Counted from the stretch's first letter, positions 3,631 through 56,736 are shown. The stretch: DNA of 64,000 nucleotides from Ahrensia sp. (GCA_002706335.1 PAKZ01000032.1:97466-161465); one strand, 5' to 3'. The notes: a model not told the origin generated them from the letters alone. A program made the numbers and translations.

Positions 3631-3638
3631 GCCCTCCC

Positions 3639-29746: not shown

Positions 29747-29749
29747 ACG

Positions 29750-31195: not shown

Positions 31196-31339
31196 GCGGT
31201 TTCCAACTCCCCTGCGGCCCCGCAACTTTTCTAGGCCAAAGCATGTCGGCTGCCAACCGGTTGCGTTCTCTGCCCTTTTAGTGCCGAATTCTGGCTGATG
31301 ATTGATCGTCGGGGCAAGTGAAGGCTGGAGCCACAGATT

Positions 31340-32011: not shown

Positions 32012-32027
32012 TCAGCACCTGACAGCG

Positions 32028-32495: not shown

Positions 32496-32519
32496 AGCGT
32501 ATCTATACCTCTCATTGGT

Positions 32520-38613: not shown

Positions 38614-39015
38614 ATGAGACCTTTCCTTCTGGCAGCCCTGTCCGGGTTGCTCGCCATATCGAGCCACAATGCTTTCGCGGAATGCTATGTCTGCGACGAT
38701 CTCGTCGTCCTCGACAGACAGGCGGCGACCTGCTTCCTGGAGAAATTCGACTCCTTCGCCGCTGCGTCGTCGCAAGCAGACGGCAAGCGCATCGAATTCG
38801 ACACCACCAGCTGCGTCGATCCCGACGCGGAAAAGCCGCGCGGCGGCCTGTCGCTGATGCCCACGATCGGCGGCATGGCGAACGCGGCTCCGAAAGCCAA
38901 GGCGCGATACACGCTGGATGATCAGACGGCCACCTGCCTGAAGGGGCTTCTCGAAACCTATGACGGCCCGTTCGATCCCGACGCGCAATTCGATCTCTCC
39001 AAGAACTGTCCGTAA
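38614..39015 (+). CDS. Small secreted Cys-containing protein with internal repeat
   Basis: GGAGG ribosome-binding site, signal peptide MRPFLLAALSGLLAISSHNAFA/E. Repeats: LDRQAATCFLEKFDSF...FDTTSC and LDDQTATCLKGLLETY...FDLSKNC. Confidence 0.6.
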   Translation: MRPFLLAALSGLLAISSHNAFAECYVCDDLVVLDRQAATCFLEKFDSFAAASSQADGKRIEFDTTSCVDPDAEKPRGGLSLMPTIGGMANAAPKAKARYTLDDQTATCLKGLLETYDGPFDPDAQFDLSKNCP

Positions 39016-39605
39016 TGAGCGACGAGACCGAAAACACGTCCGGCGATCAGGCCAAGGGCGAACGGGAGCACCGCTTTCTCTTCATCGACGTCTGGTGGTG
39101 GGACGCGCTCGGCGGGTTCTTCTCTGTGCTCGGCGTCCTCGCCGCACTTTTCGGCATCTATGAATACAAGCAGCGCGTCGAGGCGTCGAAAGCCAGCGAA
39201 ACACTGGCCCTGATCGATGTCTGGGAGACCCGTGGGGCTCGTGAGGCCTATGAAAAGCTGTCGAACGAGATCGCATCCGGCTTCGCGCAGGTGCCAGCCG
39301 CCGACATGACCGCCGCGGCAGACGATCCGGCGCTCGCCCGCGTGGTCAGCAACAAGGTCGCGGCAATCGTCCTTCGCAAGAAGGAAAACGCCGACGCCTT
39401 CGGAGAAGTGGTCTATTTCTTCAATCGCTTGGGCCTCTGCGTCGAAGCGAGCCTCTGTTCGCAGAAAGCGGCAGAGATCTTCTTCCAGGACACGCTCGAC
39501 ACCTTCATCGACGTCTTCGGCGATCAGATCAGCCGGATCCGCGAAAACCGCCCGCGATATGCCGAAGCCATGCTCCAACTGCATGAGGAAACGACGCGTG
39601 ACTAG
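39015..39605 (+). CDS. Hypothetical membrane-anchored protein
   Basis: The start overlaps the upstream stop (TAATG). One TM helix (ALGGFFSVLGVLAALFGIY) followed by a 140-aa helical domain. Confidence 0.55.
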   Translation: MSDETENTSGDQAKGEREHRFLFIDVWWWDALGGFFSVLGVLAALFGIYEYKQRVEASKASETLALIDVWETRGAREAYEKLSNEIASGFAQVPAADMTAAADDPALARVVSNKVAAIVLRKKENADAFGEVVYFFNRLGLCVEASLCSQKAAEIFFQDTLDTFIDVFGDQISRIRENRPRYAEAMLQLHEETTRD

Positions 39606-39617: not shown

Positions 39618-42600
39618 TCACTGCAGGGTGAACTGGCTATATTGCGGCTCGCTGCGCACGGATGGCATCTGACGGCCCCCGGAGAGTTCCAGCACATTGG
39701 CGCTGACATATCGGAACAGCTCGCTGAGCTCCACCGCATCGTCGCCATTGCTGTCCGCCTTCCTTGATCGCAACCCGTCGAGAAGCACATGGGTGAAGAG
39801 ACCGTTGGCGACATCGGGAGTTTCGAAGGCGAACTGGAAGCCGCCGGAGGCGGAGATGATATTCGCTCCGGAGCGCGATTTCGTGTCGAGGAAATTCGCC
39901 CTCAGGACCTCGTAACTGTCCTCCAGCGAAACCGTGTTCTTCCTGCGAGCCAACGGTACCGCGCCACGCGCATCGCGCGCGACCACCGCCCCGGTCGTGA
40001 AGGCGACCCGCTTGTCGGTCTTCAGGCTGGGGTCGATGACGCCGGAATGGCAGGCGTCGATCAGCATGACGCGGTGAAGCGAGTTCGTATCGTCGAAAAT
40101 CGATTCGAGCCTTCGAAACGGGATCGCACTGTTCGCGAGGTCGTCCAGATCCGTTTCGTGACTTCCCAGATAGTAGCCGTAGTCGTCGTCGAGCAGGCCA
40201 TGGCCGGCGAAGAAGAAGAGCGTCTTGTCCTGCGGCCGGGCCTGCGCGAAAAACCGCCGCGCCTCGTCGACCAGATCGGCGGTCGACTCGCCATCGGTGG
40301 CGACATGCACGACCGCATCGGCGGTGCCGCCGAAATAGGCGCCGATATCGCGCGCATCCTTGGCCGCATAGGTCAGATCGAGCGCATCGTCGCTGTAATC
40401 CGAGACGCCGACGGCAAACACATAGAGTTTGGGCGGAGCGATGCCCTCCGGCGGCGCGCGGCGAATGGTCGTCCTGAACAGTGTCCGCTGCACGCCCCGC
40501 GGATCGGTTTCGGTGAACCGGATCCGGTTCAATCCCGGCTCCAGCGGAACATGCAGGGCTTGCCCGTCCGATGCTGCGGAAATGCCGAGCCTTTCCAGAA
40601 CGATCCCGTTATTGCGCAATTCCACCGTCCGCAGGCCCGCCTGCCCGTCGGAAGACAAGGTGAATTCCGCGCTGTCCGATCCGGTGATCGCATCGGTCTC
40701 CTGCACGACCGTCAACTCCGCCGCCGCGGAGAGCGTCATGGGCGACGGCCTGCCGCTGCCGGTTTCGAGAAGCCTCTTTTCGTGCAGCCGGGCCAGCAGG
40801 AGTTCGCGGTCGGGCGTGATCAGCCCTGCCCGCGACAGGGCAATATCGGGCCGGTTGCGAAAAATATCGGCCTCGAAGAGATCGACGCTGCCGCCCCACG
40901 TATCGATGAAGCTCAGCCGCCGGAGCCGGTTCTTGTCGCCCGCATAATAGCCGTCCGAGGTCAGGACCACACTGCCCTCGAAATTCTTCGAGCGTGCGCC
41001 GTAGAGAGGGTCGAAGATCGCGGCGACCATCTGGTCGTTGGCCGGCATGCCAAAGGCGATGTCGTATAACCGGTCGCCATAGACCGGCGTGGCATAGTCT
41101 AGGTCGATGTCGGCGGTTTCCCATATCCGGATCACGCCCTCACGCCCGCGCGTGACGAGACCGCTCCCGTTCCAGGACAACGACCCGACCGCGGCGTCAT
41201 GCGCCTGCAAGGTCTGGCGGACGGCCCCGGATTGCAGATCCTCCAGGACCACGCTGCCGCTATCCGTTCCGATCCCCAGCATCCGGCCCGAGGCATCGAA
41301 TTCCATCGCTGTGACATTCCCCTGCCAGCCGGGGAAAATCTCGGCGGTGCGCTTGCCATCTGCGAGGTCCACGATGAAGACCAGCGAGACATTCTCCGAC
41401 CACCGTCCATTGTCCGGCGCCCGCATGTTCGCCACCGCGGCGTAACGCCCGTCCGGGCTGATGGCGAGCGGCGTATCGCTGGTGAAGTTCCAGCGGTCGG
41501 GCGCATGCAGCGGAAAGCTCCTTTCCAACGTCACCGCATCACCATCGATACGACCGATCGCGAGGCTGACGGTCTGGAGAGACCCTTCCGGATCGGTATT
41601 CCGGATGAAGATCGGGCGGCCTTGCCACGGCCCTCGCCCGGCTTTCACATCGGTGATTTCCGCCGGAACGATATCCGCCGAAAGCTTGCGGAGCGCGACG
41701 CCTTCGCCATCCAGAACCACGAGTCCGTCGCTTGCGAGAAGAAACACCTGTCCATCGTCCACGGCGAGCGCACGCGACAGCGGCAGTGAAGGTGCTTCGA
41801 AATCGCCGAGATGCCGCCACCCGCGCCCTGTCATCCGCGCCAGATGTGTCCGGTCGCCGTCCGACCCGCTGACCGTGTAGGCCAGAAGGATGTCCCGTCC
41901 CTGCCACCGGATATCGGCATCGATCAGACGAGCATCGGCGGCGTTCACGCCCGCAAGCGCGAGAAGGTCCTGATATTCGGTCCTGTTCGTCTCGGGCTGT
42001 TCGGCGATCAATATCCCGTTGGCGGTGACGGACCAGAGACGCTTGTCGGCAACCGCCCGCGCCAGGATGGCGGAGACATCCTCATAGCCCGTCTCCGCAA
42101 CCAGATCGCCGAGAACGGAACGCGTCTTGAGATCGACCATGAAGACGGAGTCGCCGCCCGCAAGGACGAATGCCAGCGCGGCATCGTCCGCCACGATCAG
42201 CTTTTTCGCACCGTCGATCGCGCGATCGAACGCTTCGACTTGCGGATCGCCCGCTCCCAGCCCGTAAACGCCCGCATCGGTGACCAGACTTGCACTGTCT
42301 TTGGAAAATGCGAAGGCCGTCCCTTCGACCGTGCGCCGCAGGCCCGATTCCAGGGTCTCGATAGTGATCCGCCCGCTCGGACGGCAGTCCGGGGTGGCAT
42401 CCGGCTCAGCCCATGCCAGCATAGCGCCGTCGGGGGAGAGACGCAGGCTTTGCGAGCTCACCTCTAGGCACTGCGTTGAGCCGAGTTTCTTTTCGACCAA
42501 CCGGTCCCCGAGCGAAATCCGGCCGTCCTTGCAGTATGCCGACAGGAAGTCCGTTGTGCCGCACCGATCCGGGAAATCCAGCGCATCGACCCTAAGGACA

Positions 42601-44081
42601 CCGGCCCGATCGAGGCTGGCGATACGTTTCGTCGCCTCCGACGCGGAGATGGCGATGATCGACTCTGGTGAAATGTCGGATAGCCCCATCTCTTCGTCAT
42701 AGCCCACATTCACGAATCCGATTTGTCCGAGATTGGTCCCGACCGCCGCGTAGACCCCGAGAACATCCATCGCCGTGAAATTCTGTTCGCTCGAAAACCT
42801 CAGAAAATGGCCGAACCCTTCGAAGCCATCCTTCTGGATGATGAAGCCCTTGATCGAGAGATCGTCATCGGCCTGTAGCAGCGCCGAGGAACTGGAGGAA
42901 CCGAAGATGCGGCCGCCGAAGTCCGAATGAATGACCTTCGTCACCTTCTGGCTTCTGACATTCCAGATCCCGAGCGTCTGCCGGCTCTTGCCAGCCCCGC
43001 CCGGCGCCGGCTGCTCCAGGAGGATCAAAGACCCGCTCGATGGGACGAAAGCGATATCGGTGACCCGGTCGCCGCCGGGCGCCATGAATGACGGGTTGAC
43101 CACCTCGAATGTCGAGCGATCGACAGGCACCGACGCATGACGATACTGCGTGTCGAATTGCCAGGCGACATGCAGCAACGAAGTGCTTCCATCGGCCCGC
43201 TGCATGGGAGACGGCTTGTCGGAGGAAATTTCGCGGCTGACACGCACGGCGAGCCCGGTTTCGACATCGACATCGGCGGTCCATCGCACGGAGAGCGGCA
43301 CGCTGCCCTGAGCGCCGGCCTCGATGGAGAACCGCGCAATTTCCCGCCCCCAGCGCGTGCCGACATCCTTCAGGGTGATCGTTCGCCAGGTCGTGTTGTC
43401 GCCAAGGACATCGTTGAAGGATGGTCCCGGATCGACCGCCTCCCCGACAATGAAGATCTTGCCGTCAAGATAGCGCCCGAACCGCGCATAGAACGGCGCC
43501 CCGTCCAGAAACACCAACGCCTTTGCGGCCTCGTCCTCCGGAAGACCGGTTTCGACAAACGTCCCCTCCGCGTCCTTCTCGAAATAACGAAGCGATCGTT
43601 CGCCCGTGTCCCCGTCTTCGATCCTGTATCGGCCGGTCCTTACCGGATAGAACGGGTCCATCGTCTCGCTTTCAGGGCTCGATCCCCGCGAAACGCTTTG
43701 CCGGTTGACGTCGATGTCCGTAACGAGCGCGCCGGCTTCGCTTCTCTGAACAGAACCGTATCGCGCGACCGCGGTCGTCACATCGGGAGCGGCGGAGAAA
43801 TCGGCTTCGGTCTTCGCGTTGATGAAGCGCCGAACGGCCCGGAGATAGATCACGACCTCATCGTTTTCGGCGTCACCGACATAGCGGAAGCTAACGGACG
43901 ATCCGCTACTCCCGTCAGCGGACGCAGCCGGCACATCGGCCGCGAAGACGCAAAGCGCCACGACCGCGACGGCAATCGACTTTGCCGTCAGGCTACGAAA
44001 GACGTCCGCAAGGGAAAGGATCGGGGAGAATACCTGCATCGCTTGCCGGAACTCAGCATCCTCCGAAAGCATAGGTGGCAT
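39618..44081 (-). CDS. Exported WD40/beta-propeller repeat protein with C-terminal caspase-like (C14) protease domain
   Basis: Leader ...SIAVAVVALCVFAADVPAASA/D. WD40-type repeats (for example VTAMEFDASGRMLGIGTDSGSVVLEDL..., HDAAVGSLSWNGSGLVTRGREGVIRIWE). Caspase dyad LFFFAGHG and VMLIDACHSG. The start is ambiguous (44081, 44072 or 44039). Confidence 0.85.
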   Translation of the reverse strand: MPPMLSEDAEFRQAMQVFSPILSLADVFRSLTAKSIAVAVVALCVFAADVPAASADGSSGSSVSFRYVGDAENDEVVIYLRAVRRFINAKTEADFSAAPDVTTAVARYGSVQRSEAGALVTDIDVNRQSVSRGSSPESETMDPFYPVRTGRYRIEDGDTGERSLRYFEKDAEGTFVETGLPEDEAAKALVFLDGAPFYARFGRYLDGKIFIVGEAVDPGPSFNDVLGDNTTWRTITLKDVGTRWGREIARFSIEAGAQGSVPLSVRWTADVDVETGLAVRVSREISSDKPSPMQRADGSTSLLHVAWQFDTQYRHASVPVDRSTFEVVNPSFMAPGGDRVTDIAFVPSSGSLILLEQPAPGGAGKSRQTLGIWNVRSQKVTKVIHSDFGGRIFGSSSSSALLQADDDLSIKGFIIQKDGFEGFGHFLRFSSEQNFTAMDVLGVYAAVGTNLGQIGFVNVGYDEEMGLSDISPESIIAISASEATKRIASLDRAGVLRVDALDFPDRCGTTDFLSAYCKDGRISLGDRLVEKKLGSTQCLEVSSQSLRLSPDGAMLAWAEPDATPDCRPSGRITIETLESGLRRTVEGTAFAFSKDSASLVTDAGVYGLGAGDPQVEAFDRAIDGAKKLIVADDAALAFVLAGGDSVFMVDLKTRSVLGDLVAETGYEDVSAILARAVADKRLWSVTANGILIAEQPETNRTEYQDLLALAGVNAADARLIDADIRWQGRDILLAYTVSGSDGDRTHLARMTGRGWRHLGDFEAPSLPLSRALAVDDGQVFLLASDGLVVLDGEGVALRKLSADIVPAEITDVKAGRGPWQGRPIFIRNTDPEGSLQTVSLAIGRIDGDAVTLERSFPLHAPDRWNFTSDTPLAISPDGRYAAVANMRAPDNGRWSENVSLVFIVDLADGKRTAEIFPGWQGNVTAMEFDASGRMLGIGTDSGSVVLEDLQSGAVRQTLQAHDAAVGSLSWNGSGLVTRGREGVIRIWETADIDLDYATPVYGDRLYDIAFGMPANDQMVAAIFDPLYGARSKNFEGSVVLTSDGYYAGDKNRLRRLSFIDTWGGSVDLFEADIFRNRPDIALSRAGLITPDRELLLARLHEKRLLETGSGRPSPMTLSAAAELTVVQETDAITGSDSAEFTLSSDGQAGLRTVELRNNGIVLERLGISAASDGQALHVPLEPGLNRIRFTETDPRGVQRTLFRTTIRRAPPEGIAPPKLYVFAVGVSDYSDDALDLTYAAKDARDIGAYFGGTADAVVHVATDGESTADLVDEARRFFAQARPQDKTLFFFAGHGLLDDDYGYYLGSHETDLDDLANSAIPFRRLESIFDDTNSLHRVMLIDACHSGVIDPSLKTDKRVAFTTGAVVARDARGAVPLARRKNTVSLEDSYEVLRANFLDTKSRSGANIISASGGFQFAFETPDVANGLFTHVLLDGLRSRKADSNGDDAVELSELFRYVSANVLELSGGRQMPSVRSEPQYSQFTLQ

Positions 44082-44736
44082 GAACGCCGATGAGCGCCAA
44101 CAGGTCGCGATCCGTCTTGCCTGTCGGTTCGACGCCGATTTCGCTCTGGAACAGCTTCACGGCTTCCGCTGTTTCCGCCGTGTAGTACCAGTCCGGCGCA
44201 TCGGCGAAATAGCCGCCCACCAGCAGATACTTCTCCAGCCGTTTGACGGCGGGATAGAGATCGCCGGGTTCCATCAGAAGCGGTTGGGCAAGCTTGTCGG
44301 AGGCTTGGCATACCGCATCAGGCGCCGGTTTCAGGAAGAAGCTGCCGTCGATCACGGCGCCATCCGCTTCCATGGCACCAAGTGCGGTAACGACGCTTTC
44401 CATGCGGACCGATTCCACGCGCCGGTTCGAAAACTCGGCGAGCAATCCATCGCGCACCCGCATCAGCGTGATGCGCCCGCCGTCGCATTCGAGCGAACAC
44501 GTGACCGACCCGTTTTCGGGAAATTCGCAGGAGTCTGTGTAGGGCGCGTAAGGATTGACGGTCTTCGCATAGGTGATCGACCCGCTTCGGTCGATGGTCA
44601 TTATGCCGACGCCGGAATCGGGCGTTGCTTTCTCCAGCGTGTAGCAGCTGGCCGGTTCCGCTCCGAACGCGGGGCCGCTCACAAGCGCAACCGAAATGGT
44701 GGCCGTGGCAAGCCCCGAGGCGATACGAGACATCAT
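44053..44736 (-). CDS. Secreted protein with C-terminal peptidoglycan-binding-like domain
   Basis: Signal peptide ...VALVSGPAFG/A. The C-terminal VKRLEKYLLVGGYF...TAETAEAVKLFQSEIGVEPTGKTDRDLLALI fits the PG_binding_1 helix pattern. The ATG overlaps the upstream CHAT gene stop. Confidence 0.65.
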   Translation of the reverse strand: MMSRIASGLATATISVALVSGPAFGAEPASCYTLEKATPDSGVGIMTIDRSGSITYAKTVNPYAPYTDSCEFPENGSVTCSLECDGGRITLMRVRDGLLAEFSNRRVESVRMESVVTALGAMEADGAVIDGSFFLKPAPDAVCQASDKLAQPLLMEPGDLYPAVKRLEKYLLVGGYFADAPDWYYTAETAEAVKLFQSEIGVEPTGKTDRDLLALIGVHATYAFGGC

Positions 44737-47700
44737 GATGTGCCCTCCAGTACGACAATCGGTGCCCAGTAATAGGGATGTCTCTCGTCCGGTACGGTCA
44801 TGCCGGCGCCCTTCTGTTTGGATTTGGCGGAACGGAAGTCGGTGCTCGCCCCCTTGTGCTCGCCGCGCAGGAACTGCCGCTGCACCTGTGCGAGCGCGCT
44901 GGCGACGGACAGGCCCTTGTCGATCTGATGCTTGTAGAACTCCTGCATGAAGACTGCCGTCGAACGGTCGTTGATCGGCCAGAGCGTGGCGACGATTTCA
45001 AGCGCGCCTTTCTGCTGCGCGACGGCGGCAAAGCTCTCCAGTTCGCGGCCGTCAGCCTCCCGCCGGCCATACGCGGTCTCGCAGGCCGACAGGGTCAGCA
45101 CACCGACCTCGGCGAAATCGAGATCCATCCCGAAACTGTCCTTGATGTCGGCGACGGTCAGCCGGTCACCATCGCCAAGCAGCAGGTAGGAATCGTCCTC
45201 CGAACTGCCGAGGATGAAATGCGAGGCGAGATGAACGATGCCAAGCGTCGGCTCGTCCGGCTCCCCGAATATCAAAGCGCTCGCCATCGTATCGCGGGTG
45301 AAATCCGCGTCGGCATGGATCGTGCCGTCGACCACCCCCTGCGCGTCCTCGCCGCCCTCGCGCACAATCGCGGAGAGTTCGTCGGCAACGCCGGGAAGCG
45401 GCGATAGACCGTACCAGGAATTGGTCGTTCCGAACCCCGCGATACGGTCAGGCGATGCCCCGCCCCCTCCGACCGACCGCGTTTCGGTCGCATGCGTCAG
45501 GTCGAAATCCTCGACCAGATAGTGCTCGCCATCATGGAGCGCGGCGAAGGGCACGTAACGCAGCCGGCGATCCAGCGACAAGATCAGCGTTTGCGTACCG
45601 GCATCCTCCAGTTCGCGCATCAACTCCCCTGGGAGAACCAGATCGTGCAAGGCCTTGGAGGCGGGCTTCGGATCGGTGCCCGGATTCTGCAGCGCCTTTC
45701 GCAAGGATTCGATTCCGGCGTTCAGCCGCTCTTCCGTGAACGGCGCGCCCTCCCATTCGGTCCAGCTGAACACCCTTTCGGAGACCGCGGTCGTAAGGAT
45801 TGCGCCGACCCGGTCCGGCAGGACGACATACTGGATCGCCGCCGCCTTTCCGTCAAAGGCGCGGCGCAAATGCGCCCGTACCGAGCTGACATTGCGCGCC
45901 AGATCCTCGACGACAGTGCTGTGCACGGCGTCAGAGGCCGCGATCAGCCCTTCCAGTTCCTTTTCCATCTCTTCGCGCGAAGCGACGAGCGTGTCAGTCA
46001 AGGAGGCAAGTTCGGTCTCTTCCGCGCCGGTCAACTCGCCGCTCTTGCGTTGCAACAGCAATTCGCGCCGCCGGATTTTCAAGGCTGTCACGGTCGGACG
46101 AACCGCATCGATCTTGGCGGACAGCGCCTCTTCTGCGGGGTTCATCTCCAGCGTGGCAAAGGCATCGCCCGCGAAATCCGTGTCGCGACCGAGAAATTCG
46201 AAGGTCTCGAAGGATTTGAGCATGCCGAGAACGGTCGACGCCTCGGCCGGCCGGTCCTGGCTGATGAAGAGATCGGCCAGCCAGCGATAGTGATCGGAGA
46301 TCGTGTCGCGGAAACACATTTGCAGATGTTCCGGCAGCCCGGAAATGCGCCGACGCACATCCTGCAGTTCATTGACGGCGCGCTTCGCCAGCGTCAGCGC
46401 CATCGCCGCCTCGTCGAGCGCGTAAAGGCGCTCGCTCGCCTTGGAAAGCGTACAGACCCGCCCGAGCGATGCCTCGATATTGCCGTTCCAGACAGCGGTC
46501 ATGGCGTGGCGCGCCATGTCGGCGGTCAGCGCGACCAGTTCCAGCTCGACGGCGCGCAGTCTGTTGCCGGCGTCCGCTTCCAGCTTCGCCAGTTGCCGGG
46601 CGGACAGCGCCAACCCCATACTGTTGCCCGAGAGACCTTCGGCCAAGGCAAAGCGTTCGCGAGCTGCACCGATGTCGACCGAGACATCCGGTCTCGGCTC
46701 GTCAGCGGTCGACGCCAGTTCGAGCAGGGCGCGTGCCGCCTCGTCTCCCCGTTGGGCGAGCATCTGAAGAACACGTTCGAGCGGATCCCACGCCTCATCA
46801 GGTCCGCCCTCTAGGTGGCGGGCAAGTGCACGGCGGAACGCGGCTCCACGCGACGCGCCGACCTCGCCATCTGCGGGAAGGGCACGCACCAGGCGTAGCG
46901 ACTCCAGCGCCCCGGCATAGTCGCCGTAATAGGAGAGGACATCCACCCAGCCGGCGATGGCATAGGCGGGACGCGTCCTAGTCGACTCGTTATAGGGGGG
47001 CAGCCGCCCCTGTTCGCGCAGTTCGGCCTCCTCGGACGCTGCCGCCTGCGCCAACCATTCATATGCATAGGCGACGATATCCGGTTCGCCCCCCCCAAGA
47101 GCCGCAACCCGATGGAACTCGACGCAATCGGCGAAGCCCTGTACGGCAGGCTGGCAGATTTCGTCCGCCGCCGCCTTGAATGCCTCGGTTCCCGGCGCGT
47201 AGCGATAAAGGCCCAGCAGCGTGCCCTTCGTCAGTCGGGCAAGCTCGTTTTCGTCCGCCTGCAATTCCGGCTGCGCCAGCAGGATACGTGTCAGCTTGCC
47301 ATTCGCGTCCTCGTCATCCGCAAGGCGATACCACGCCGCGGCCTTACCGAGATCGACGGTCGGTCCGCCATCAAGCCCCGCAAAGGCGTCGCCGAGAGTA
47401 ATCGCGAACTCGACATAGGCCGCCCGCGTGGTCCAGTCCTGCTCCTCGCCGGCGGACGCCCCGATGATCTTGCCGGCATCGTCGAGCAGAGCGCGCCCCG
47501 GCCCTTCGGAAAAGAACTCGCTGCCATTCAGCAGGCGCCCCTGGAACACGCCTGCCGCGCCGTTGGTCAGACGGCCGATTTCACCGTCGAGGCGGAGACC
47601 AGCCCGGTAATAGGCAAGCGCCTTGTCCCAGTCGCGCGGCACATGCTTGCCGGTCTCGTGGAACCGTGCCAGCGCGAGACTTGCGGCCGTCTGCCCCAGC

Positions 47701-49400
47701 TTCGCCGCGCCGCGGTAATACTTCAGCGACGCCGCAATATTCTGCGGCACGCCGTAGCCCTGCTCGTTCATCTGAGCGAGCCTCAGAAGAGCGAAGCTGC
47801 TGCCCTTGTCCGCCGCCGCCTGGAAGTGCTGCAGCGCGAGCGGCAGGTCTTTGCGTCCGTCGACGAACCCTTCCAGCAATAGCGTCGCAACAATCGCATT
47901 GGCCTGATGGCTGCCGTCGGCACGCAGTTGCGCGGAAACGGCCGGGTCGTCCGCCACCGCCTGCGCAAGCCCGACCGCCCTGTCGGCAAGGCTGATCGGG
48001 ACGCTGAAGTCGAGTGCGATCTGCTCGACAGTCGCCTTGTTGCCCTCCCCGGCCCACCACGGCTCGATATAGGTGTTCGCACCCAGCCCGCCTTCCGCCT
48101 CGGGAAAAAGCGATCCGTCGTCCCTTTCGCCCTCAGACTGAAGCAGGCCGGCCAGCGCCTCGCCCATGCCTTCCGGCAGTGTATCGGGAAGAACGCCGGC
48201 CACCGCAGCGCGCACCAGGGCGACATCGCCGCCGATCCAGCGTTCGGCGCGCTCATTGCCGAGGCCAACCAGATAGATGCCGACATCCGGCCGGCGCGGC
48301 AAGCCTTCGCCGTTGTAATAGTCGAGGCCGAGCCGGCTCAGCGCGGTCTTCCAGCGGCCTTCCTCATCGTCTTCGGGTATACCAGTCGCGGACCAAACTG
48401 CCTTGCGGGTCGCCGAAGCGATCGCCTCGATCGAAGCCAGATCCCCCGGCCAATCGGGAAGCGCTGCAAACACGGTTTTCAGAAACAGATAGATTTGATC
48501 GGGACCACTTTTACCGTCGTTTCCGTCCATCGCCGCCAATTGCCCTGAGCACGCGCCGAAGATCTCAGCGAGGCCGGCTTTCAGACGATCCAAATCGATA
48601 GTGTCCTCCGCACTCGCCAGCGCCGCAATTTGCCATCCGACCGGCGCCCAGACGGTTTCCGGAGCCTTGCCCGCCTGACAGGCCGCAAGCGTACGCAGCA
48701 ATATCTGCCCATCGAACGGTTTCGCCCGCGCCAGATCCGCAGCGCATAACGGGCCGCCCTGCCCGGCCGCTGCCAGCGCAAGAACATCGCCCGGCATCGG
48801 AAGCGTGCCCTCGTCCTTGGGTGCAAGGTCGGCCCGATCCGCCGCGCGGTTCCACGCCGTGACGCTACCCTTTCCGAAAAGCCCGTCAGCTTCGCCTGCT
48901 TCGCAGCCATGCAAATTGAGCATCGCCTGCGCCAAGCGCGATTGCGGCTGGTAATAGGCCCGAACCTCGACCTGCTTGCGCGTAATCTCGCCGAGCCCTT
49001 CGGATTCGATAACATCGATGAGCGGGCACACACCGTCGCCATACCGTTCGATATCGGCGCGAAGCCTCTGCAGCGCCGCCGCATTGGCCGCAAGCATGCG
49101 GTTGGCAAAGCCTAGCCCATCCTGCGCCTGTCCGATGGTCGAGCCAGACATCAGATAGTCGACAACATTCACGCCGGCCCGCCCGGCGAAATCGCCCACG
49201 CTGGATGTCGAATAGCTCGCCGCCACTGCGATGATCGTGTCGAGGTCGTAACTGGCGGCTTGGCCATAGTCGCCGGGACAGACAGCCGATTCCAGTGCCG
49301 CCCTCCAGTCTCCGACAGCATCCTGCGCTTGTCCCCGGAGCGTCGCGGCCCCCAAGACGAGAACCGCCACAGCGACGATGCCGACCAAACGCAAGAGCAT
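44733..49400 (-). CDS. Exported giant PG-binding / Sel1-TPR repeat CHAT-domain protease (third copy)
   Basis: Leader MLLRLVGIVAVAVLVLGAATLRGQA/Q. PG-binding-like LAQAMLNLHGCEAGEADGLFGKGSVTAWNRA. Sel1 repeats (AADKGSSFALLRLAQMNEQGYGVPQNIAASLKYYRGAAKLG...). CHAT motifs IVHLASHF and VLTLSACETA, then TLWPINDRST and HPYYWAPIVVLEG. Confidence 0.85.
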   Translation of the reverse strand: MLLRLVGIVAVAVLVLGAATLRGQAQDAVGDWRAALESAVCPGDYGQAASYDLDTIIAVAASYSTSSVGDFAGRAGVNVVDYLMSGSTIGQAQDGLGFANRMLAANAAALQRLRADIERYGDGVCPLIDVIESEGLGEITRKQVEVRAYYQPQSRLAQAMLNLHGCEAGEADGLFGKGSVTAWNRAADRADLAPKDEGTLPMPGDVLALAAAGQGGPLCAADLARAKPFDGQILLRTLAACQAGKAPETVWAPVGWQIAALASAEDTIDLDRLKAGLAEIFGACSGQLAAMDGNDGKSGPDQIYLFLKTVFAALPDWPGDLASIEAIASATRKAVWSATGIPEDDEEGRWKTALSRLGLDYYNGEGLPRRPDVGIYLVGLGNERAERWIGGDVALVRAAVAGVLPDTLPEGMGEALAGLLQSEGERDDGSLFPEAEGGLGANTYIEPWWAGEGNKATVEQIALDFSVPISLADRAVGLAQAVADDPAVSAQLRADGSHQANAIVATLLLEGFVDGRKDLPLALQHFQAAADKGSSFALLRLAQMNEQGYGVPQNIAASLKYYRGAAKLGQTAASLALARFHETGKHVPRDWDKALAYYRAGLRLDGEIGRLTNGAAGVFQGRLLNGSEFFSEGPGRALLDDAGKIIGASAGEEQDWTTRAAYVEFAITLGDAFAGLDGGPTVDLGKAAAWYRLADDEDANGKLTRILLAQPELQADENELARLTKGTLLGLYRYAPGTEAFKAAADEICQPAVQGFADCVEFHRVAALGGGEPDIVAYAYEWLAQAAASEEAELREQGRLPPYNESTRTRPAYAIAGWVDVLSYYGDYAGALESLRLVRALPADGEVGASRGAAFRRALARHLEGGPDEAWDPLERVLQMLAQRGDEAARALLELASTADEPRPDVSVDIGAARERFALAEGLSGNSMGLALSARQLAKLEADAGNRLRAVELELVALTADMARHAMTAVWNGNIEASLGRVCTLSKASERLYALDEAAMALTLAKRAVNELQDVRRRISGLPEHLQMCFRDTISDHYRWLADLFISQDRPAEASTVLGMLKSFETFEFLGRDTDFAGDAFATLEMNPAEEALSAKIDAVRPTVTALKIRRRELLLQRKSGELTGAEETELASLTDTLVASREEMEKELEGLIAASDAVHSTVVEDLARNVSSVRAHLRRAFDGKAAAIQYVVLPDRVGAILTTAVSERVFSWTEWEGAPFTEERLNAGIESLRKALQNPGTDPKPASKALHDLVLPGELMRELEDAGTQTLILSLDRRLRYVPFAALHDGEHYLVEDFDLTHATETRSVGGGGASPDRIAGFGTTNSWYGLSPLPGVADELSAIVREGGEDAQGVVDGTIHADADFTRDTMASALIFGEPDEPTLGIVHLASHFILGSSEDDSYLLLGDGDRLTVADIKDSFGMDLDFAEVGVLTLSACETAYGRREADGRELESFAAVAQQKGALEIVATLWPINDRSTAVFMQEFYKHQIDKGLSVASALAQVQRQFLRGEHKGASTDFRSAKSKQKGAGMTVPDERHPYYWAPIVVLEGTS

Positions 49401-49592: not shown

Positions 49593-50525
49593 GTGAACAT
49601 TGCAGCGAAACGGCGGTGCGTCTTGAGTCTGTCCCAAAGCTTCACTCGGTGGCTTCTGTCGTTCAGAAGCAACAATTTCAAAACCGAAGCCATTCTCAGG
49701 AAACACGTTCAGGACATCGGCACACAAAACGTGCCGAACATCCCGGCGTCGTTGCGGTCCATGTGCGATGTGGAGGAGTTCCTGCTCCAGGACCAGAAGG
49801 TCGTCCAGCTGACGCCCAAGGGAAAGGCGTCACAAGACCATATCCTCTACATCCACGGCGGCGGCTATATTCACGAGTTGGCCTACGCCCATTGGTTGAT
49901 CATCACGCAGCTGGTGAAGCATACGAATGCGGCCGTAACGGTGCCCCTCTATGCCCTTGCGCCAGAACATGATCACACCAAAGCGACGCCCATGATGGAT
50001 GCGCTTTACGATCGGATCGCCGCCGGCCGCGAGCGAAAGAAGACCTTTGTCGCAGGCGACAGCGCGGGCGGCAACTTCGCCCTCGGTCTGGCGCTCCGCC
50101 GGCGCGATGCCGGCAAATCACTCCCGGACGGGCTTATTCTTTATTCTCCCTGGCTGGATTTCGAGCTCAAGGATAAAGCGATCCGTGACGTCGAACCTAA
50201 GGATGTCATGCTGGGTGTGGAGGGTGTTCTCTTATGCGGTAAGTGGTGGGCAGGCGATGCCGATCCCGCATCGCCGTATTTCAGCGTGATAAACGCAGAC
50301 CCGAAGGGTCTTCCCCCCATTGCCATCTTCCATGGGGATCTCGATCTCTTGGTTGTCGACGCACGCCGATTTGCGGGTCTTTGCATGTCGGCCGGGGTCA
50401 AGACCACCTATAGGGAATATCCAGGCGGGTTTCACGTCTTCATGGCGGCAACGTTCACGCCCGAGGCCCGTGATGTGTACCATCAGACAGAAGACTTCAT
50501 AAATCACGCAAATCTGCCAACGTAA
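49593..50525 (+). CDS. Alpha/beta hydrolase, hormone-sensitive-lipase (family IV) esterase type
   Basis: HGGGY oxyanion motif, GDSAGGN nucleophile elbow, C-terminal GGFHVF His. GTG start in the track, so the exact start is uncertain. Confidence 0.75.
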   Translation: MNIAAKRRCVLSLSQSFTRWLLSFRSNNFKTEAILRKHVQDIGTQNVPNIPASLRSMCDVEEFLLQDQKVVQLTPKGKASQDHILYIHGGGYIHELAYAHWLIITQLVKHTNAAVTVPLYALAPEHDHTKATPMMDALYDRIAAGRERKKTFVAGDSAGGNFALGLALRRRDAGKSLPDGLILYSPWLDFELKDKAIRDVEPKDVMLGVEGVLLCGKWWAGDADPASPYFSVINADPKGLPPIAIFHGDLDLLVVDARRFAGLCMSAGVKTTYREYPGGFHVFMAATFTPEARDVYHQTEDFINHANLPT

Positions 50526-51083
50526 ACTTCTGACAGATATAGGCAAACCCAAGGGGTGATCCAACAAAATGCCCGGATGAATGTCTAGTCGTATAGAGCA
50601 GCCTTGCCGATTTTACTCGGCGCTCGGATACCGGTTACCCATAGCCCATGAAAGGAAACTGGCTGAACGGCTGAACTTTGCCGGCGTGTGACCATCCACG
50701 AAAGAGGCAGAGTGCATGTCTCAAGTTGCGTGGACGGATTGGATCACGGCATATGTGACCTCAAATCTGTTCCAAAGTACGATCGTTCCTTCACGCGCCT
50801 TGTCCTGTAAGGCAAAGGAACGCCCTCACGCATCCAAGGAATGTGGACCCGGCAGATTGCGACTCCATCTGCGCGTTCGGCTTTACCAAACCCCTTCCCC
50901 AGGAAGACCCCACGGATCGTCCGACATGCCCTGCCGACTTCACCCAGTCGACGTATATGTCGGCAATCGGGGCATTAACCCAGTTTCAAAGGACGAATTT
51001 CCATCCGGCAACATTTCGCATAGTTCATGACGAAATAAGGGAGCGCTTCCCTCGAGGCCAATTTGCAACAGCGAAGAAACGCC

Positions 51084-52460
51084 ATGATGATCTTGGCATT
51101 AGCGCGTGTGCGCTTTCAGTCGATCTTTCCGTTGCTAATTGCCTACAGCACGTCTGGAGGCAGTCTGGTCGTCAGTTCTGCGGCCCAACTGCTGACATTC
51201 GCCATACTGGCAAAAACGCTGGGCGCGAACGAGTTCAGTCTCTTCGTCGGAATCATGGCCGTGTCTAGCATCGCGATTCACCTTTGCGGACTTGGCGGTG
51301 CCGAATCTCTTGTCCGACGCGTCGCCCGCGATCTGCAAATCTACCCAGCGCTTCTCGGACACAACATCATCCTGATCATAGCCAGCGGATCGGTTCTCGT
51401 TATTGGAGGATCAGTTGCGCTGAATTTCTTCTTCACATTGGCAGATAGCGTAGGGACGAACCTCGCCATCATCGCGGTGATGATGGTCACCAATGTTGTC
51501 CTGACCCGCTTCATCCTGCTGACCGAGCAGATTTTCATAGCGCATTCCGACTTCATTTCCGCCAACAAGGTCGTGGTCGGGTACGCAATGACCCGAACGG
51601 CTGCGGCTGCACTCGGCTGCCTGGTCTTCGGTGTGTCCAGCGTGGCTGAGTGGGCAGCCTGGCAGTTCGTCGCTCATGTTGTTGTTCTGCTAGCCTGTAT
51701 CCGCGCCATACGGCCGCTTGGTAAGCCGGAATTCCGGATTGTCCGGGAAGAGGTTCCGCTGGGCTTGTATTTCAGCGTACCTTTCATCCTTCGCGCGGTT
51801 CGGCAGAATGCCGACCTGCTTGTTCTCAGTCTCATGACGTCTGCAGAAATCGTAGCCAGCTATGGTATCGCGCGCCGCATGCTGGAAAGCAGCTATCTTG
51901 CTGTCGAAGCCGTTCACCGGCTGGTTTACCCTGGGTCCGCAAGGGCTGCGAAGTCAGGGCTGCATAATGCAATCCAGAGGGTCCGCAAGATCCTGCTCGC
52001 GGTATCGTCCATCAGTGTTGCCGCTGCGGTAACAGTATTCGTCTGCGCGCCGATCTTGCCCTATCTGTTCGGAGCCGAATACGTGTCCCTGGTCACTTTC
52101 GTGCGGTATCTGTGCTGGCTCGTTGTTCCGATTGCGCTTTGGTCGATCCCCATGGAGGCTGTCGGCGCGTCCGGTCATCAATCCGCGCGTGCGCTTGTCA
52201 TGGGAGTGGGCAGCGTTGCCGGTGCGGCGATTGCCGCATGCGCGACATGGTACGCTCCACCCACCGGCACGTTCGTCTCATTCTACTTCATTGAAATAGC
52301 GATGGTGATCGCGGCCTGGAGCATGTTCTTCAGGTTGGTGCGCCACGACAGGCGCGCAGAAGGTTTGCGGCAGCAGCCTCAGGAGGGCACACGATCAGAG
52401 GATGACACCCGAAATCACGCCGAAAAACGAGAAATGGAAATCGATCGGAAGATAAGATGA
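51084..52460 (+). CDS. Polysaccharide/oligosaccharide flippase (MOP superfamily, Wzx-like)
   Basis: About 458 aa with at least 12 TM helices. First ATG at 51084 (the track starts at TTG 51063). Heads a run of sugar-modification and glycosyltransferase genes. Confidence 0.6.
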   Translation: MMILALARVRFQSIFPLLIAYSTSGGSLVVSSAAQLLTFAILAKTLGANEFSLFVGIMAVSSIAIHLCGLGGAESLVRRVARDLQIYPALLGHNIILIIASGSVLVIGGSVALNFFFTLADSVGTNLAIIAVMMVTNVVLTRFILLTEQIFIAHSDFISANKVVVGYAMTRTAAAALGCLVFGVSSVAEWAAWQFVAHVVVLLACIRAIRPLGKPEFRIVREEVPLGLYFSVPFILRAVRQNADLLVLSLMTSAEIVASYGIARRMLESSYLAVEAVHRLVYPGSARAAKSGLHNAIQRVRKILLAVSSISVAAAVTVFVCAPILPYLFGAEYVSLVTFVRYLCWLVVPIALWSIPMEAVGASGHQSARALVMGVGSVAGAAIAACATWYAPPTGTFVSFYFIEIAMVIAAWSMFFRLVRHDRRAEGLRQQPQEGTRSEDDTRNHAEKREMEIDRKIR

Positions 52461-53176
52461 CAAATCTTGCTACAGAATCCGGCGACGCCGAGATCGGAAG
52501 CACCGCGAAGCTGCATCGTTTCATGGACATCGAACTTGAACTCGCGCCGGACGTTCTCATTCCGCGTCAGGAGACCGAGTTGTTGGGAAGGCGTGCCACG
52601 GACATCCTTCTCTCGAGCCCCAATCCACATCCGAAAGTCATCGATCTTTGTTGCGGATCCGGTAATCTCGCGCTTGCCATCGCCTCTCTGGTCCCGACAG
52701 CCCGTATGTGGGCATCAGACTACACGGAGCATTGTGTCGCTTTAGCAAAGCGCAATGCTGACAGACTGGGACTGGCAGACAGGATCACGGTCATGCAGGG
52801 GGACATGTTTTCCGCGCTAGCCGAGGAAGGTCTGCTTGGATGTGTCGACATGATTGTCTGCAATCCTCCCTATATTTCCACGTCTCGGCTTGAGGGTGAA
52901 AGCGCCCACCTGCTGGAAGAAGAGCCGCGCGAGGCATTTGATGGCGGACCATACGGCATCTCCATTCATCAAAGGCTGTTGACCGATGCAATACCATTCC
53001 TCAAGCCGGATGGCTGGCTCTTGTTCGAGTTCGGCGAAGGACAGGATCGACAAATCAAGGCGCTGGTGGCGCGGGCGCGGCGCTACGCACCGGTTTCATT
53101 CGCTTGCGATGGTGGTGGCCGGCCGCGCGTGGCGATCACGCGTATGCTGAACCGCAGCAGCGACGTACAGGGTTAA
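52457..53176 (+). CDS. HemK/PrmC-like class I SAM-dependent methyltransferase
   Basis: Motif I VIDLCCGSGNLA and motif IV CNPPYIS (NPPY). ATGA overlap with the flippase gene. Confidence 0.75.
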   Translation: MTNLATESGDAEIGSTAKLHRFMDIELELAPDVLIPRQETELLGRRATDILLSSPNPHPKVIDLCCGSGNLALAIASLVPTARMWASDYTEHCVALAKRNADRLGLADRITVMQGDMFSALAEEGLLGCVDMIVCNPPYISTSRLEGESAHLLEEEPREAFDGGPYGISIHQRLLTDAIPFLKPDGWLLFEFGEGQDRQIKALVARARRYAPVSFACDGGGRPRVAITRMLNRSSDVQG

Positions 53177-53186
53177 TTGCAAAGCC

Positions 53187-54299
53187 ATGAGCACGATCCG
53201 CGGCTTTATACACGCAGACGTCGAGCCGGTTGCACGCATGTTCATGCGTATCTATCGCCATTCCGACGCTGCAGCACCGGCACATCTCATCGACTATTTC
53301 CGGCTGCACTTCGTCGACGCGCCGGTATGCGATTCCGAGGTCCCGTCTCTTGTCCACGTCGAAGATGACGAGACCATTTCCGGCTTTCTTGGCGTAAACG
53401 TAATTACCATGCTCTGCGGCGCGAAGTCCCACCGGGCCGCGATCTGCGGCACCTTTATGGTCGAATCCCCCGAGAAGCGTCCGATGGCGGCCGCTCGCCT
53501 GATGAAGACCTTGATGGAGGGAAAGCAGGACCTCACTCTCAGCGAAACCACCAGCGAGAAGACCTCGCGGATGGTTACGCGTCTGGGAGCGGCTATCTTG
53601 CCGCAGTACAGCCTTGACTGGTTTCGCGTAATTCGGCCAGCCGGATTGCTGATCGAAACCGCATCGCAAAAACTCCCCCCGGCGCGCTGGCTTTCTCCGG
53701 CCGCCAAAGGCGTCGATGGCTTACTGCGAGGACGAGGGAGGGAAAGCGATCTGCGCTGGTCGATGGTAGGCGAAAGCGCACTCCCTACCAAGGGTTTCGA
53801 ACTCGCCGAAATCGACGTTTCCAAGTTCGTGGAGCACTTGGAACGCTTCACAAGACAATACGACATAAGGCCGGATTTTGCGGGCGACGGATTCGCCCAT
53901 GTAATCGGCGAAGGATTGGAAAAGCCGGACTACGGTAAACCCGTTGTCGCGGAGATCAACGCGCGCGGCGGCAAGCCGGTCGGAGCGGTCTTCTACCATG
54001 TTCGTCCGGGCGCCACCGCCCATGTTCTGCAGGTACTCGTGCAACCGGGCCAGGAAGGCGCAGTCCTCGACGCCCTCGTTCGCGATGCGGCTGAGCGAGG
54101 GGCCGTCGCCTTGCGCGGTCGCCTTCAACCGGCCTTGCTTGAACCGATGCTCGTGCGGCGCATTGCCTTGCTTCCGATCGCCTCGAGCATCGTTCAGTCG
54201 CGGACTCCGGCCTTCGTTAACGCATTCACGGAATCAAAAGGCTTCTTCAACGGCCTTGTCGGTGAAAAGTGGAGCCGCTTCTACGGCGGAAGCCTCTGA
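53187..54299 (+). CDS. Hypothetical protein, possibly a GNAT-fold acyltransferase
   Basis: 370 aa. The N-terminal IRGFIHADVEPVARMF... and an alternating beta/alpha pattern are reminiscent of GNAT/Eis-like proteins, but the canonical Q/RxxGxG motif is not evident. Confidence 0.35.
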   Translation: MSTIRGFIHADVEPVARMFMRIYRHSDAAAPAHLIDYFRLHFVDAPVCDSEVPSLVHVEDDETISGFLGVNVITMLCGAKSHRAAICGTFMVESPEKRPMAAARLMKTLMEGKQDLTLSETTSEKTSRMVTRLGAAILPQYSLDWFRVIRPAGLLIETASQKLPPARWLSPAAKGVDGLLRGRGRESDLRWSMVGESALPTKGFELAEIDVSKFVEHLERFTRQYDIRPDFAGDGFAHVIGEGLEKPDYGKPVVAEINARGGKPVGAVFYHVRPGATAHVLQVLVQPGQEGAVLDALVRDAAERGAVALRGRLQPALLEPMLVRRIALLPIASSIVQSRTPAFVNAFTESKGFFNGLVGEKWSRFYGGSL

Positions 54300-54488
54300 T
54301 GGGGTGGAAACAGGCCTTATAAAATCTTCCAACAATCATTCAAATTTGACTCACAACTTAAATAATAAAATTTTATATATTCACTATGATTTCCGTTATC
54401 CTAAGTTGAAATCAATATTTGTTTGTTTGTCGCTGTTTTAATGCCTTAATTGAGATACATGAAGCCTTTCTCATGCAGGGCGAAGTGA

Positions 54489-56426: not shown

Positions 56427-56445
56427 TAGTAACAAGGAGATCATC

Positions 56446-56712
56446 GTGAGCTCATCTGTCAAAGACGCAGTGAGGGCATTCATTAGGGAAAACTACCTGT
56501 TCGGGGACGAAACCGTTGAACTGGCGGACGACGCATCGCTGATTGAGAACGATATCATCGACTCGACCGGAGTGCTCGAACTCGTCGCTTTCGTCGAGGA
56601 GCACTTTGGCGTGGTGATGGATGACGCCGAAATCGTCCCGGCGAACCTCGACTCGGTCGACCGCATCGTCGCTTACGTCGGATCGAAAACGAGCCAGGCC
56701 ATCGCAGTCTGA
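56446..56712 (+). CDS. Acyl/peptidyl carrier protein
   Basis: 88 aa. Phosphopantetheine attachment motif IIDSTGVLEL. GTG start with an AAGGAGA ribosome-binding site. Confidence 0.8.
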   Translation: MSSSVKDAVRAFIRENYLFGDETVELADDASLIENDIIDSTGVLELVAFVEEHFGVVMDDAEIVPANLDSVDRIVAYVGSKTSQAIAV

Positions 56713-56736
56713 TTGCAGCACCGGAGAGCGCGCATC

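Follow-up and report, generated by a model that had tools for sequence, protein, structure and literature searches.

Three Tightly Packed Genes

The window analysed here is a 64,000-nt stretch of DNA from Ahrensia sp., and all coordinates are positions within it unless a related locus is named. At 39618-49400 it contains three long open reading frames (ORFs), all on the (-) strand and tightly packed in an operon-like arrangement, which we number 1 to 3 in reading order on that strand. The first two form a conserved pair, whose products may act together in the cell envelope.

44733-49400 (-) gene 1, ORF of 1555 aa, Sel1-CHAT protein, apparently exported
44053-44736 (-) gene 2 (the partner), ORF of 227 aa, small, apparently exported PG_binding_1 protein
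39618-44039 (-) gene 3, WD40-caspase, 1473 aa from the conserved ATG; the longest ORF, from 44081, has 1487 aa
44733-44736 (-) ATGA stop/start overlap of genes 1 and 2

An initial annotation of this DNA had described three (-)-strand genes of 1555, 227 and up to 1487 aa, overlapping at their junctions. All three are confirmed as ORFs, and the ATGA that it noted at 44733-44736 does serve gene 1 as its stop and gene 2 as its start; a GGAGGG lies ~10 nt upstream of that start. The second junction is different. The proposed 29-nt overlap of gene 3 with gene 2 needs ATG 44081, which is missing in the orthologous locus L015, where both in-frame ATGs upstream of gene 3 are replaced (CAC...TAC). Gene callers, in three independent assemblies, start the protein at ATG 44039 (MQVFSP...), giving 1473-1475 aa, and its orthologues, all of 1427-1479 aa, start at the equivalent position. 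Because ATG 44039 is the conserved start, the spacing between genes 2 and 3 is 13 nt. Translational coupling, claimed for the whole cluster, is borne out for genes 1 and 2, whose coupling is kept across distant lineages.

A consensus scan found no promoter- or terminator-like site at either junction, which is weak evidence, with counts at or below shuffle expectation; gene 3 is probably co-transcribed with genes 1 and 2 in the Ahrensia-like lineage. On its upstream side the cluster adjoins a divergent alpha/beta-hydrolase gene (49593-50525), and on its downstream side the gene of a DUF4760-like protein (39015-39605 (+)), which is convergent with it. The GC content at third codon positions of the three genes is 0.73-0.76, in line with other likely genes of the window, and the bulk GC of the cluster is the same as that of the window from 1 to 50 kb.

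Gene 1 Encodes a Predicted CHAT Protease

Pfam assigned two families to protein 1, CHAT (PF12770, clan CD), which covers residues 1246-1550 and profile positions 2-286 of 289 with 163.4 bits against a cut-off of 24, and Sel1 (PF08238), which matches two stretches with 44.9 bits against 30.7; no zinc-binding anti-sigma domain was among the Pfam matches. In a sequence search of the PDB, Sel1-repeat proteins matched residues 481-623 with E values down to 1e-13. The features of the gene are listed below, where CHAT1 and CHAT2 denote two TPR-CHAT proteins encoded elsewhere in the same island, the CHAT protein of gene 1 being CHAT3, and a slash in a sequence marks a predicted cleavage site.

49323-49400 (-) signal peptide, residues 1-26 (...LRGQAQ/DA), by direct reading; hydrophobic N-terminus and AQAQ-type site kept in orthologues
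48843-48932 (-) motif AQxxLNLHGCxAGxxDGLFGxGSxxAWN, residues 157-186, kept in 7 orthologues; PG_binding_1-like, below all thresholds
47532-47960 (-) Sel1-repeat region, residues ~481-623 (Pfam Sel1 and PDB matches)
45666-46400 (-) helical pre-CHAT module, residues 1001-1245, common to CHAT1 and the unrelated TPR-CHATs P0022, P0023, P0025 and P0026; absent from CHAT2
46182-46232 (-) block VLGMLKSFETFEFLGRD, residues 1057-1073, within the helical pre-CHAT module
44751-45665 (-) CHAT protease domain, residues 1246-1550 (Pfam); His1394 in 45216-45230, Cys1440 in 45075-45092

By direct reading the catalytic dyad is intact (LASH1394F and SAC1440, in LSACET), and both H1394 and C1440 are invariant among 8 aligned family members. 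Protein 1 is accordingly described here as a predicted CHAT cysteine protease. Its orthologues, with 32-83% identity, have the same architecture, and the cysteine pairs C749/C759 and C983/C1029 are invariant in their alignment. The N-terminus is a cleavable-type signal peptide, and no transmembrane anchor was found beyond it. Two of the related CHAT genes, both in metagenome loci, are interrupted: that of L007 (2800-6650) by a frame shift near 6485, and that of L019 (3292-7938) by a split of the ORF at ~7272-7303, although there the tblastn alignment runs continuously. These are either pseudogenes or assembly errors.

Gene 2 Encodes a Small, Predicted Peptidoglycan-Binding Partner

In the partner a signal peptide is followed by a Cys-rich beta domain and then by PG_binding_1, and the chain ends in GGC; six cysteines are conserved in the family alignment. 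PG_binding_1 was recognised by Pfam at residues 162-215 with 35.5 bits against a cut-off of 23.

44287-44661 (-) N-terminal beta domain, residues 26-150; C70, C80 and C84-D-G-G invariant in alignments; strands modelled with a predicted local distance difference test score (pLDDT) of 83-94
44356-44391 (-) flexible loop with (E/D)ADG, residues 116-127; motif at 123-126, loop 116-122 with pLDDT <50
44092-44253 (-) PG_binding_1 domain, residues 162-215 (Pfam and Foldseek)

Protein 2 was modelled with AlphaFold2. An alignment of 13 close homologues gave a pLDDT of 41, and one of 23 sequences that included distant members gave 81, with a predicted template modelling score of 0.64. In the latter model an all-beta N-domain (residues ~30-138) is followed by a helical C-domain. 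Searched with Foldseek against the PDB, the C-domain matched the N-domain of SleB (6tci) with a template modelling (TM) score of 0.80, normalised to the target, and a root-mean-square deviation of 1.3 A; other matches were the phiKZ gp144 and AP3 endolysins, the Zn DD-peptidase 1lbu, SleC and CtpB. The whole model gave no PDB match at E <= 0.001, as expected because the PG-binding domain makes up only 60 residues. The modelled C-domain has a bona fide PG-binding fold, and binding to peptidoglycan is predicted.

The N-domain found no confident fold match in the PDB; its best resemblances were to barrels like those of fatty acid-binding proteins and lipocalins, weakly, with a TM score of ~0.4 and a probability of ~0.5. 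We take it to be a small antiparallel beta domain without known relative. The (E/D)ADG loop combines a conserved sequence with a flexible structure, as would be expected of a loop that binds another protein or is cleaved, and it may serve as either. The M-E-A-D-G in this region (residues 116-127) resembles a caspase-type P4-P1/P1' site (xExD/G), which we mention only as a lead. A 155-aa exported protein encoded downstream of CHAT2 (32028-32495) was considered as a relative of the partner and rejected (hhalign probability 0.8%).

The initial annotation had placed PG_binding_1 in both of the first two proteins and had named failure at hidden Markov model (HMM) thresholds as the result that would overturn this. 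Protein 2 passes those thresholds, and its fold agrees; protein 1 fails them. In the whole protein 1 there was no Pfam match to PG_binding_1 (PF01471) at E<=1, and isolated fragments 1-200 and 101-500 gave none at E<=10. What is left in protein 1 is the DG-FG-like motif at residues 157-186, conserved in all seven orthologues that cover the stretch, which resembles the helix-loop-DGxFG-helix core of PG_binding_1. Used as a profile against the PDB, the motif had a sole match, the PG-binding domain of SleB, at a weak E of 1.4, and its hhalign alignment with the PG-binding profile of the partner was in register but weak (E 0.095, probability 0.6%).

The Conserved Unit Is the CHAT-Partner Pair

We fetched 22 related loci (L001-L022). 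A word-indexed search with the product of gene 2 returned 14 proteins, and HMMER, run exhaustively on 1.84 billion representatives with only the partner N-domain, returned 16 clusters. The top HMMER match, P0036 (1893 aa), was rejected as an artefact: it contains 20 near-identical repeats, every one of them a weak match. The 15 genuine clusters contain proteins of 214-254 aa, and in the 10 whose sequences were read the architecture is uniform, consisting of a signal peptide, a beta-rich domain with invariant C...C...C-D-G-G, PG_binding_1 and the C-terminal GGC. Among 185,579 species-representative genomes a single locus came up, that of Parasedimentitalea denitrificans (Rhodobacterales), and a scan of metagenomes with a narrower alignment (A3) added seven more. 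The partner family is rare and the pair phylogenetically narrow. The closest named relatives of the window proteins are in an Ahrensia sp. metagenome-assembled genome (order Hyphomicrobiales), and the exact partner protein is found in many marine metagenome assemblies. Members of the family are called only 'hypothetical protein' in the databases.

In 22 of 22 loci a CHAT gene of the same subfamily lies directly upstream of the partner gene. This holds across partner identities from 100% down to ~29% and across two orders, Hyphomicrobiales and Rhodobacterales, while the genomic contexts of the pair are unrelated (transposases, a ParA-like gene, an autotransporter, housekeeping genes). A stop/start overlap joins the two genes in 10 locus groups, and a gap occurs only in L010 and in the disrupted L007.

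4-nt overlap (ATGA) at the CHAT-partner junction: window, L005, L011-13, L022
1-nt overlap: L004, L008, L009, L018, L019, L021
gap: L010 (22 nt); L007 (disrupted CHAT gene)

The WD40-caspase behaves otherwise. Homologues of it were found only at identities of at least 76%, and it stands behind the pair only in the window, in L001-3, which encode an identical partner protein, in L014 (87%) and in L015 (81%). Downstream of the pair it is absent in L004-L008, L016, L018, L019, L021 and L022. In short, it is absent wherever the partner gene is less than 81% identical, and the CHAT-partner pair is always kept. Because the pair is retained in all loci while the WD40-caspase is lineage-restricted, the conserved unit is the CHAT protein plus its partner; the WD40-caspase is a recent, lineage-specific addition.

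Several other genes were seen beside the pair. In Parasedimentitalea denitrificans (L008), a C14-TPR-Sel1 caspase with a signal peptide is encoded 1.6 kb upstream (1743-3782); we rejected it as a conserved neighbour, as it is missing from the sister loci L004 and L019. A second PG_binding_1 protein of 487 aa is encoded directly downstream of the pair in the same locus (10801-12264) and recurs in L016. The DUF4760-like membrane protein that borders the cluster in the window (39015-39605 (+)) also occurs near the pair in L005 (11230-11820, 66% identity), where its gene is on the same strand as the pair with no caspase between; this points to a rearrangement at the site of insertion of the caspase gene. 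In the lineage with 67% identity, Mutator-type and IS66 transposase genes flank the pair (L005, 12178-12849; L006, 2747-5065) and a ParA/VirC1-like gene lies upstream, a hint of horizontal transfer or of a plasmid location of the pair. The most divergent pair, in L022, is convergent with a gene for a glycine-rich autotransporter-like protein of >1500 aa with GGxGG repeats and a C-terminal beta-barrel-like tail (7791-12359 (-)).

Gene 3 Joins WD40-Type Blades to a Caspase Domain

Gene 3 had been described as a WD40-type propeller array joined to a C-terminal caspase with an intact His/Cys dyad. The caspase half of this description stands. Pfam recognised Peptidase_C14 with 49.1 bits against 21.4, and the dyad is intact by direct reading (FAGH1280G and DAC1330HSG in the 1473-aa numbering); the DACHSG motif is one which we take to be of the metacaspase type. 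The NCBIfam model caspase_w_EACC1 (NF047832) scored 85.3 bits, below its cut-off of 140, so that protein 3 is not assigned to the EACC1-associated caspases.

43917-44039 (-) signal peptide, residues 1-41 (...PAASA/DG), by direct reading
41040-41474 (-) WD40-type blades, residues ~856-1000, the only detectable ones (Pfam and PDB matches)
39648-40412 (-) Peptidase_C14 domain (Pfam); His1280 in 40197-40211, Cys1330 in 40041-40058 (DACHSG)

The array is less well supported. WD40 itself (PF00400) scored 22.6, below its cut-off of 27, and ANAPC4_WD40 (23.9 against 22.9) was the only WD40-family model to pass, all whole-propeller models of Pfam remaining far below theirs. The Pfam matches of this family pile up on one stretch, residues 870-990 in the 1487-aa numbering, and WD40 proteins of the PDB, with E values down to 4e-20, match entirely within residues 884-1000. 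Detectable WD40 sequence thus amounts to about 2-3 blades, and an array of propellers is plausible. The ~850 N-terminal residues contain no recognised domain, and of the ~1200 residues that precede the C-terminal C14 domain only ~150 can be recognised as WD40.

In a survey of bacterial metacaspases WD40 was the commonest partner domain (10.9%), TPR and Sel1 were also among the commonest, and PG-binding fusions made up 1.6% (Asplund-Samuelsson et al. 2012, PMC3501461). In many of the proteins surveyed an N-terminal helix, probably a signal peptide, is present (PMC3501461). Protein 3 resembles these metacaspases and orthocaspases in having a C14 domain with a DxCHSG-type active site fused to what appear to be WD40-type blades. 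It differs from them in the C-terminal position of C14 after ~1200 residues, in its restriction to one narrow clade and in its place behind a CHAT-partner pair. The initial annotation had called it unusual that two repeat sensors feed two cysteine proteases at the cell wall; the domain combinations themselves are not unusual, because WD40, TPR and Sel1 are the commonest metacaspase partners and PG-binding fusions are known (PMC3501461).

The Genes Belong to an Island of Apparently Exported Hydrolases

The N-terminus of each of the three proteins has a charged n-region, then a hydrophobic core and finally an AxA-like site, which we read directly as AQAQ/D, AFG/A and ASA/D, respectively. These signal peptides had been overlooked in the initial annotation. 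Nearly all of the hydrolases encoded at 23.6-35.5 kb likewise start with Sec-type signal peptides on direct reading.

23619-25736 C14 caspase, 705 aa, signal peptide
25758-28586 TPR-CHAT 1 (CHAT1), 942 aa, signal peptide
28642-29691 trypsin-family protease, 349 aa, signal peptide
29750-31225 patatin-like lipase with lipobox (LAGC), signal peptide
32520-35540 TPR-CHAT 2 (CHAT2), 1006 aa, signal peptide

Several small signal-peptide proteins without Pfam match are also encoded within 23619-35540. With the operon studied here included, the island (23.6-49.4 kb) comprises three CHATs and two caspases, besides one trypsin and one patatin, within 26 kb. We infer from the signal peptides and the conserved cysteines that Sec would export the three proteins to the periplasm; the conserved cysteines of the partner and the cysteine pairs of the CHAT protein fit an oxidising compartment. 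The signal peptides would place the system in the envelope, set apart from cytoplasmic defence proteases.

The relationship between CHAT1 and CHAT3 bears on a further proposal, namely that module A of the island, with CHAT1, and module C, the present cluster, are paralogous CHAT + caspase pairs marked by a distinctive block before the protease domain. CHAT1 and CHAT3 are 33% identical over 559 aa (E 3e-67), a similarity that takes in the helical pre-CHAT module (~245 residues) along with the CHAT domain and so reaches well outside the core; CHAT2 is no more than a distant relative of the two. However, foreign TPR-CHATs are about as close to CHAT1 as the CHAT3 clade is: against its C-terminal 560 residues the former score 192-208 bits and the latter 186-233 bits. 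The block VLGMLKSFETFEFLGRD and its counterpart in CHAT1 do exist, but they are generic to the subfamily, for the block recurs in the unrelated metagenome TPR-CHATs P0022, P0023, P0025 and P0026, for example as VLGLLKTQELSEFLQR and VARLLKAEELYDFSFRD. The two caspases align at an E of 0.013 only, over 164 aa, and are not specifically related. Judged from these comparisons, modules A and C have a CHAT subfamily in common and are not a duplicated CHAT + caspase cassette.

A Possible Envelope Protease with a Dedicated Partner

Our preferred interpretation, to which we give a probability of about 0.5, is that the conserved unit is a two-gene, translationally coupled, Sec-exported periplasmic pair made up of a wall-tethered CHAT protease and a partner that serves as its regulator or substrate. 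The ~1000-residue helical, Sel1-containing region of protein 1 would be a ligand sensor, placed ahead of the helical pre-CHAT module and the CHAT domain. CHAT protein and partner would form a roughly 1:1 complex in the periplasm, where the C-terminal PG_binding_1 domain of the partner would tether it, and with it the complex, to the sacculus. The disulfide-rich beta domain, which carries the flexible (E/D)ADG loop, may dock on the protease as a regulator. On sensing a ligand, which could be a protein of the envelope, of an invader or derived from the wall, the helical domain would activate the CHAT dyad, resulting in cleavage of the partner and/or of other periplasmic targets. In the Ahrensia-like lineage the WD40-metacaspase may be a second effector or a downstream zymogen, outside the conserved core.

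The partner could then be a tether combined with an inhibitor or pseudo-substrate, like securin for separase, or a cleavable substrate, like Csx30 for Csx29. Securin inhibits separase, and craspase is activated allosterically (summarised in PMC11506125). The likeness lies in a CHAT protease with a long helical N-terminal region and a specific small partner, encoded in the same locus in the case of Craspase. On the other hand, those systems are cytoplasmic or nuclear, and the partner described here is unrelated in sequence to theirs and carries PG_binding_1, so that cleavage or inhibition in the present pair would be by analogy. Protein 1, which begins with a signal peptide, is not a member of the Csx29 family: model NF041237, whose cut-off is 300, gave it 12.7 bits. 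Type III-E Csx29 is associated with Cas7-11, Csx30, Csx31 and RpoE, whereas scanning parts of the window revealed no CRISPR-associated genes.

A second likeness is to periplasmic gene pairs of a protease and its inhibitor. In the serralysin-type AprA-AprI/Inh and the staphopain-staphostatin pairs, a small antiparallel beta-barrel inhibitor is encoded next to the protease and co-expressed with it. Here too a small beta-rich protein is encoded beside a protease, but the resemblance of its N-domain to a barrel is limited to the weak matches described above, and those inhibitors lack a PG-binding domain and act on metallo- or papain-like proteases. No sequence similarity or significant structural similarity to such inhibitors was found, no test aimed at them having been made.

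Several points weigh against the preferred interpretation. The signal peptides were read from the sequence by eye. The partner N-domain has no significant structural neighbour, and because of this the role of inhibitor or substrate is only an analogy. PG_binding_1 is also present on enzymes that act on the walls of other cells, which makes tethering to the cell's own sacculus a prediction. Among the scanned neighbours there is no sigma, anti-sigma or other signalling output gene. PADLOC gave no defence match for the CHAT protein or the partner, and the caspase matched a generic caspase model only. Lastly, the rest of the island, with its trypsin, its patatin, two more CHATs and another caspase, all apparently exported, could equally fit an offensive or digestive secretome.

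That last reading, in which the island hydrolases leave the cell across the outer membrane, either as weapons against other cells or host tissue or as a means of harvesting protein, and in which the partner directs the protease to foreign walls, is a credible though rather unlikely alternative. Seven apparently exported hydrolases are clustered (C14, TPR-CHAT, trypsin, lipobox patatin and the second TPR-CHAT, then the operon studied here), the structurally nearest PG_binding_1 domains belong to endolysins and lytic enzymes, and the pair adjoins transposases and a ParA-like gene in L005/L006 and an autotransporter in L022. Sel1 proteins, moreover, often mediate host interaction. However, no genes for type I, type II or type VI secretion systems or for two-partner secretion were found in the scanned parts of the window, and a strictly 1:1 coupled partner suits regulation better than targeting. 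A clan CD protease with a sensor region of ~1000 residues is typically a specific, switch-like enzyme and not a bulk protease (see also PMC11506125).

We consider improbable the model of the initial annotation, an obligate three-protein complex in which Sel1/TPR and WD40 sensors feed two cysteine proteases, with PG anchors in proteins 1 and 2 and a duplication from module A to module C. The packing of the genes on one strand (4-nt overlap, 13-nt gap) without terminator- or promoter-like sites at the junctions, the three-gene order kept where the partner gene is 81-100% identical, the 33% identity of CHAT1 and CHAT3 over 559 aa and the other signal-peptide caspase 1.6 kb upstream of the pair in Parasedimentitalea would all be consistent with it. 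The WD40-caspase, however, is missing from all of the more distant CHAT-partner loci, where the pair persists, and the Parasedimentitalea caspase is not kept in sister loci. What is more, the PG-binding assignment of protein 1 fails, the two caspases are unrelated beyond the family level (E 0.013), CHAT1 is about equidistant from foreign TPR-CHATs and the block that it shares with CHAT3 is subfamily-generic. A three-protein functional unit is unlikely on these grounds, and the more striking claims of that annotation (two PG anchors, a three-part complex, a module duplication) mostly do not hold.

Slightly more doubtful still is a signalling protease of the DdvA type, in which the CHAT protein would act as site-1 protease on a regulator in the membrane, either an anti-sigma factor or a sensor, whose gene lies elsewhere, and the partner would only localise it. 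DdvA, an anti-sigma factor of Myxococcus xanthus, is the one characterised periplasmic TPR-CHAT; its dyad is present in a resting state, and it is proposed to be activated by a signal and to act by signal-induced proteolysis upstream of RseP (PMC11506125). The two are analogous in architecture, a large helical-repeat region being followed in both proteins by a CHAT domain with a His/Cys dyad, in the periplasm in DdvA and apparently so here. DdvA differs in being membrane-anchored, in its cytoplasmic zinc-binding anti-sigma domain and in the extracytoplasmic function (ECF) sigma factor that is cognate to it. Protein 1 appears to be soluble and exported, has Sel1 instead of canonical TPR repeats and has a dedicated PG-binding partner gene; it contains neither a Pfam zinc-binding anti-sigma domain nor a transmembrane anchor beyond the signal peptide, and a scan of the neighbourhood, in the window and in the related loci, showed no gene for an ECF sigma or an anti-sigma factor. 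We therefore do not assign it to the DdvA-type anti-sigma factors.

A cytoplasmic anti-phage abortive infection system of the gasdermin/caspase or Craspase kind is very improbable. In its favour, fusions of CHAT and C14 proteases with TPR/WD40 sensors are a hallmark of systems of this kind, and the generic 'caspase' model of PADLOC matches protein 3 (E 1.4e-12). Against it, all of the proteins carry signal peptides as read from the sequence, the Csx29 model reaches 12.7 bits against 300 and the EACC1-type caspase model 85 against 140, neither CRISPR nor NTPase genes came to light in those parts of the window that were scanned, and PADLOC detected no gasdermin or other component among ten neighbouring proteins, the seven unassigned ones giving no match at all. 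A gasdermin system or another known defence system was rejected as an identity for the cluster, PADLOC having matched nothing except that generic model.

A more specific form of the preferred CHAT-partner interpretation is a securin-like periplasmic switch, which we put forward as a speculation with a small chance of being right. The disulfide-locked beta domain would hold the CHAT protease inactive on the sacculus through the (E/D)ADG loop until wall damage or an invading protein (phage, predator or toxin) freed the partner or triggered its cleavage, leading to CHAT proteolysis in the envelope and, in this lineage, to activation of the WD40-metacaspase zymogen. If true, this would be a caspase-type proteolytic cascade outside the cytoplasm.

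Bacterial proteases of the CHAT and caspase families have so far been understood almost entirely as cytoplasmic death or defence switches (Craspase, gasdermin activators), the only characterised periplasmic CHAT being the membrane-bound anti-sigma factor DdvA. A soluble exported CHAT protein with a dedicated PG-binding partner would, if confirmed, be a second and different use of the CHAT fold in the envelope. Taken singly, all of the domains assigned here clearly belong to known families. A Sel1-CHAT protease, soluble and apparently exported, that is obligately paired with a PG-binding partner family of its own appears to be undescribed, and none of the papers searched mentions both 'CHAT domain' and 'peptidoglycan-binding'. 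The pair offers a simple two-protein system in which to study how CHAT proteases are restrained and triggered, and its immediate value is that of a defined hypothesis, not of a new principle.

Other Features of the Window

Far from the cluster, at 3639-6044 (-), the window encodes a homologue of the large subunit of NiFe-hydrogenase (738 bits). Its ORF has ~255 extra N-terminal residues, and the true start is probably internal. At 50001-58000 the GC content is 0.56-0.58 over polysaccharide-biosynthesis genes (a Polysacc_synt flippase, a methyltransferase, an asparagine synthase and an AMP-binding enzyme), compared with 0.60-0.66 in the protease island.

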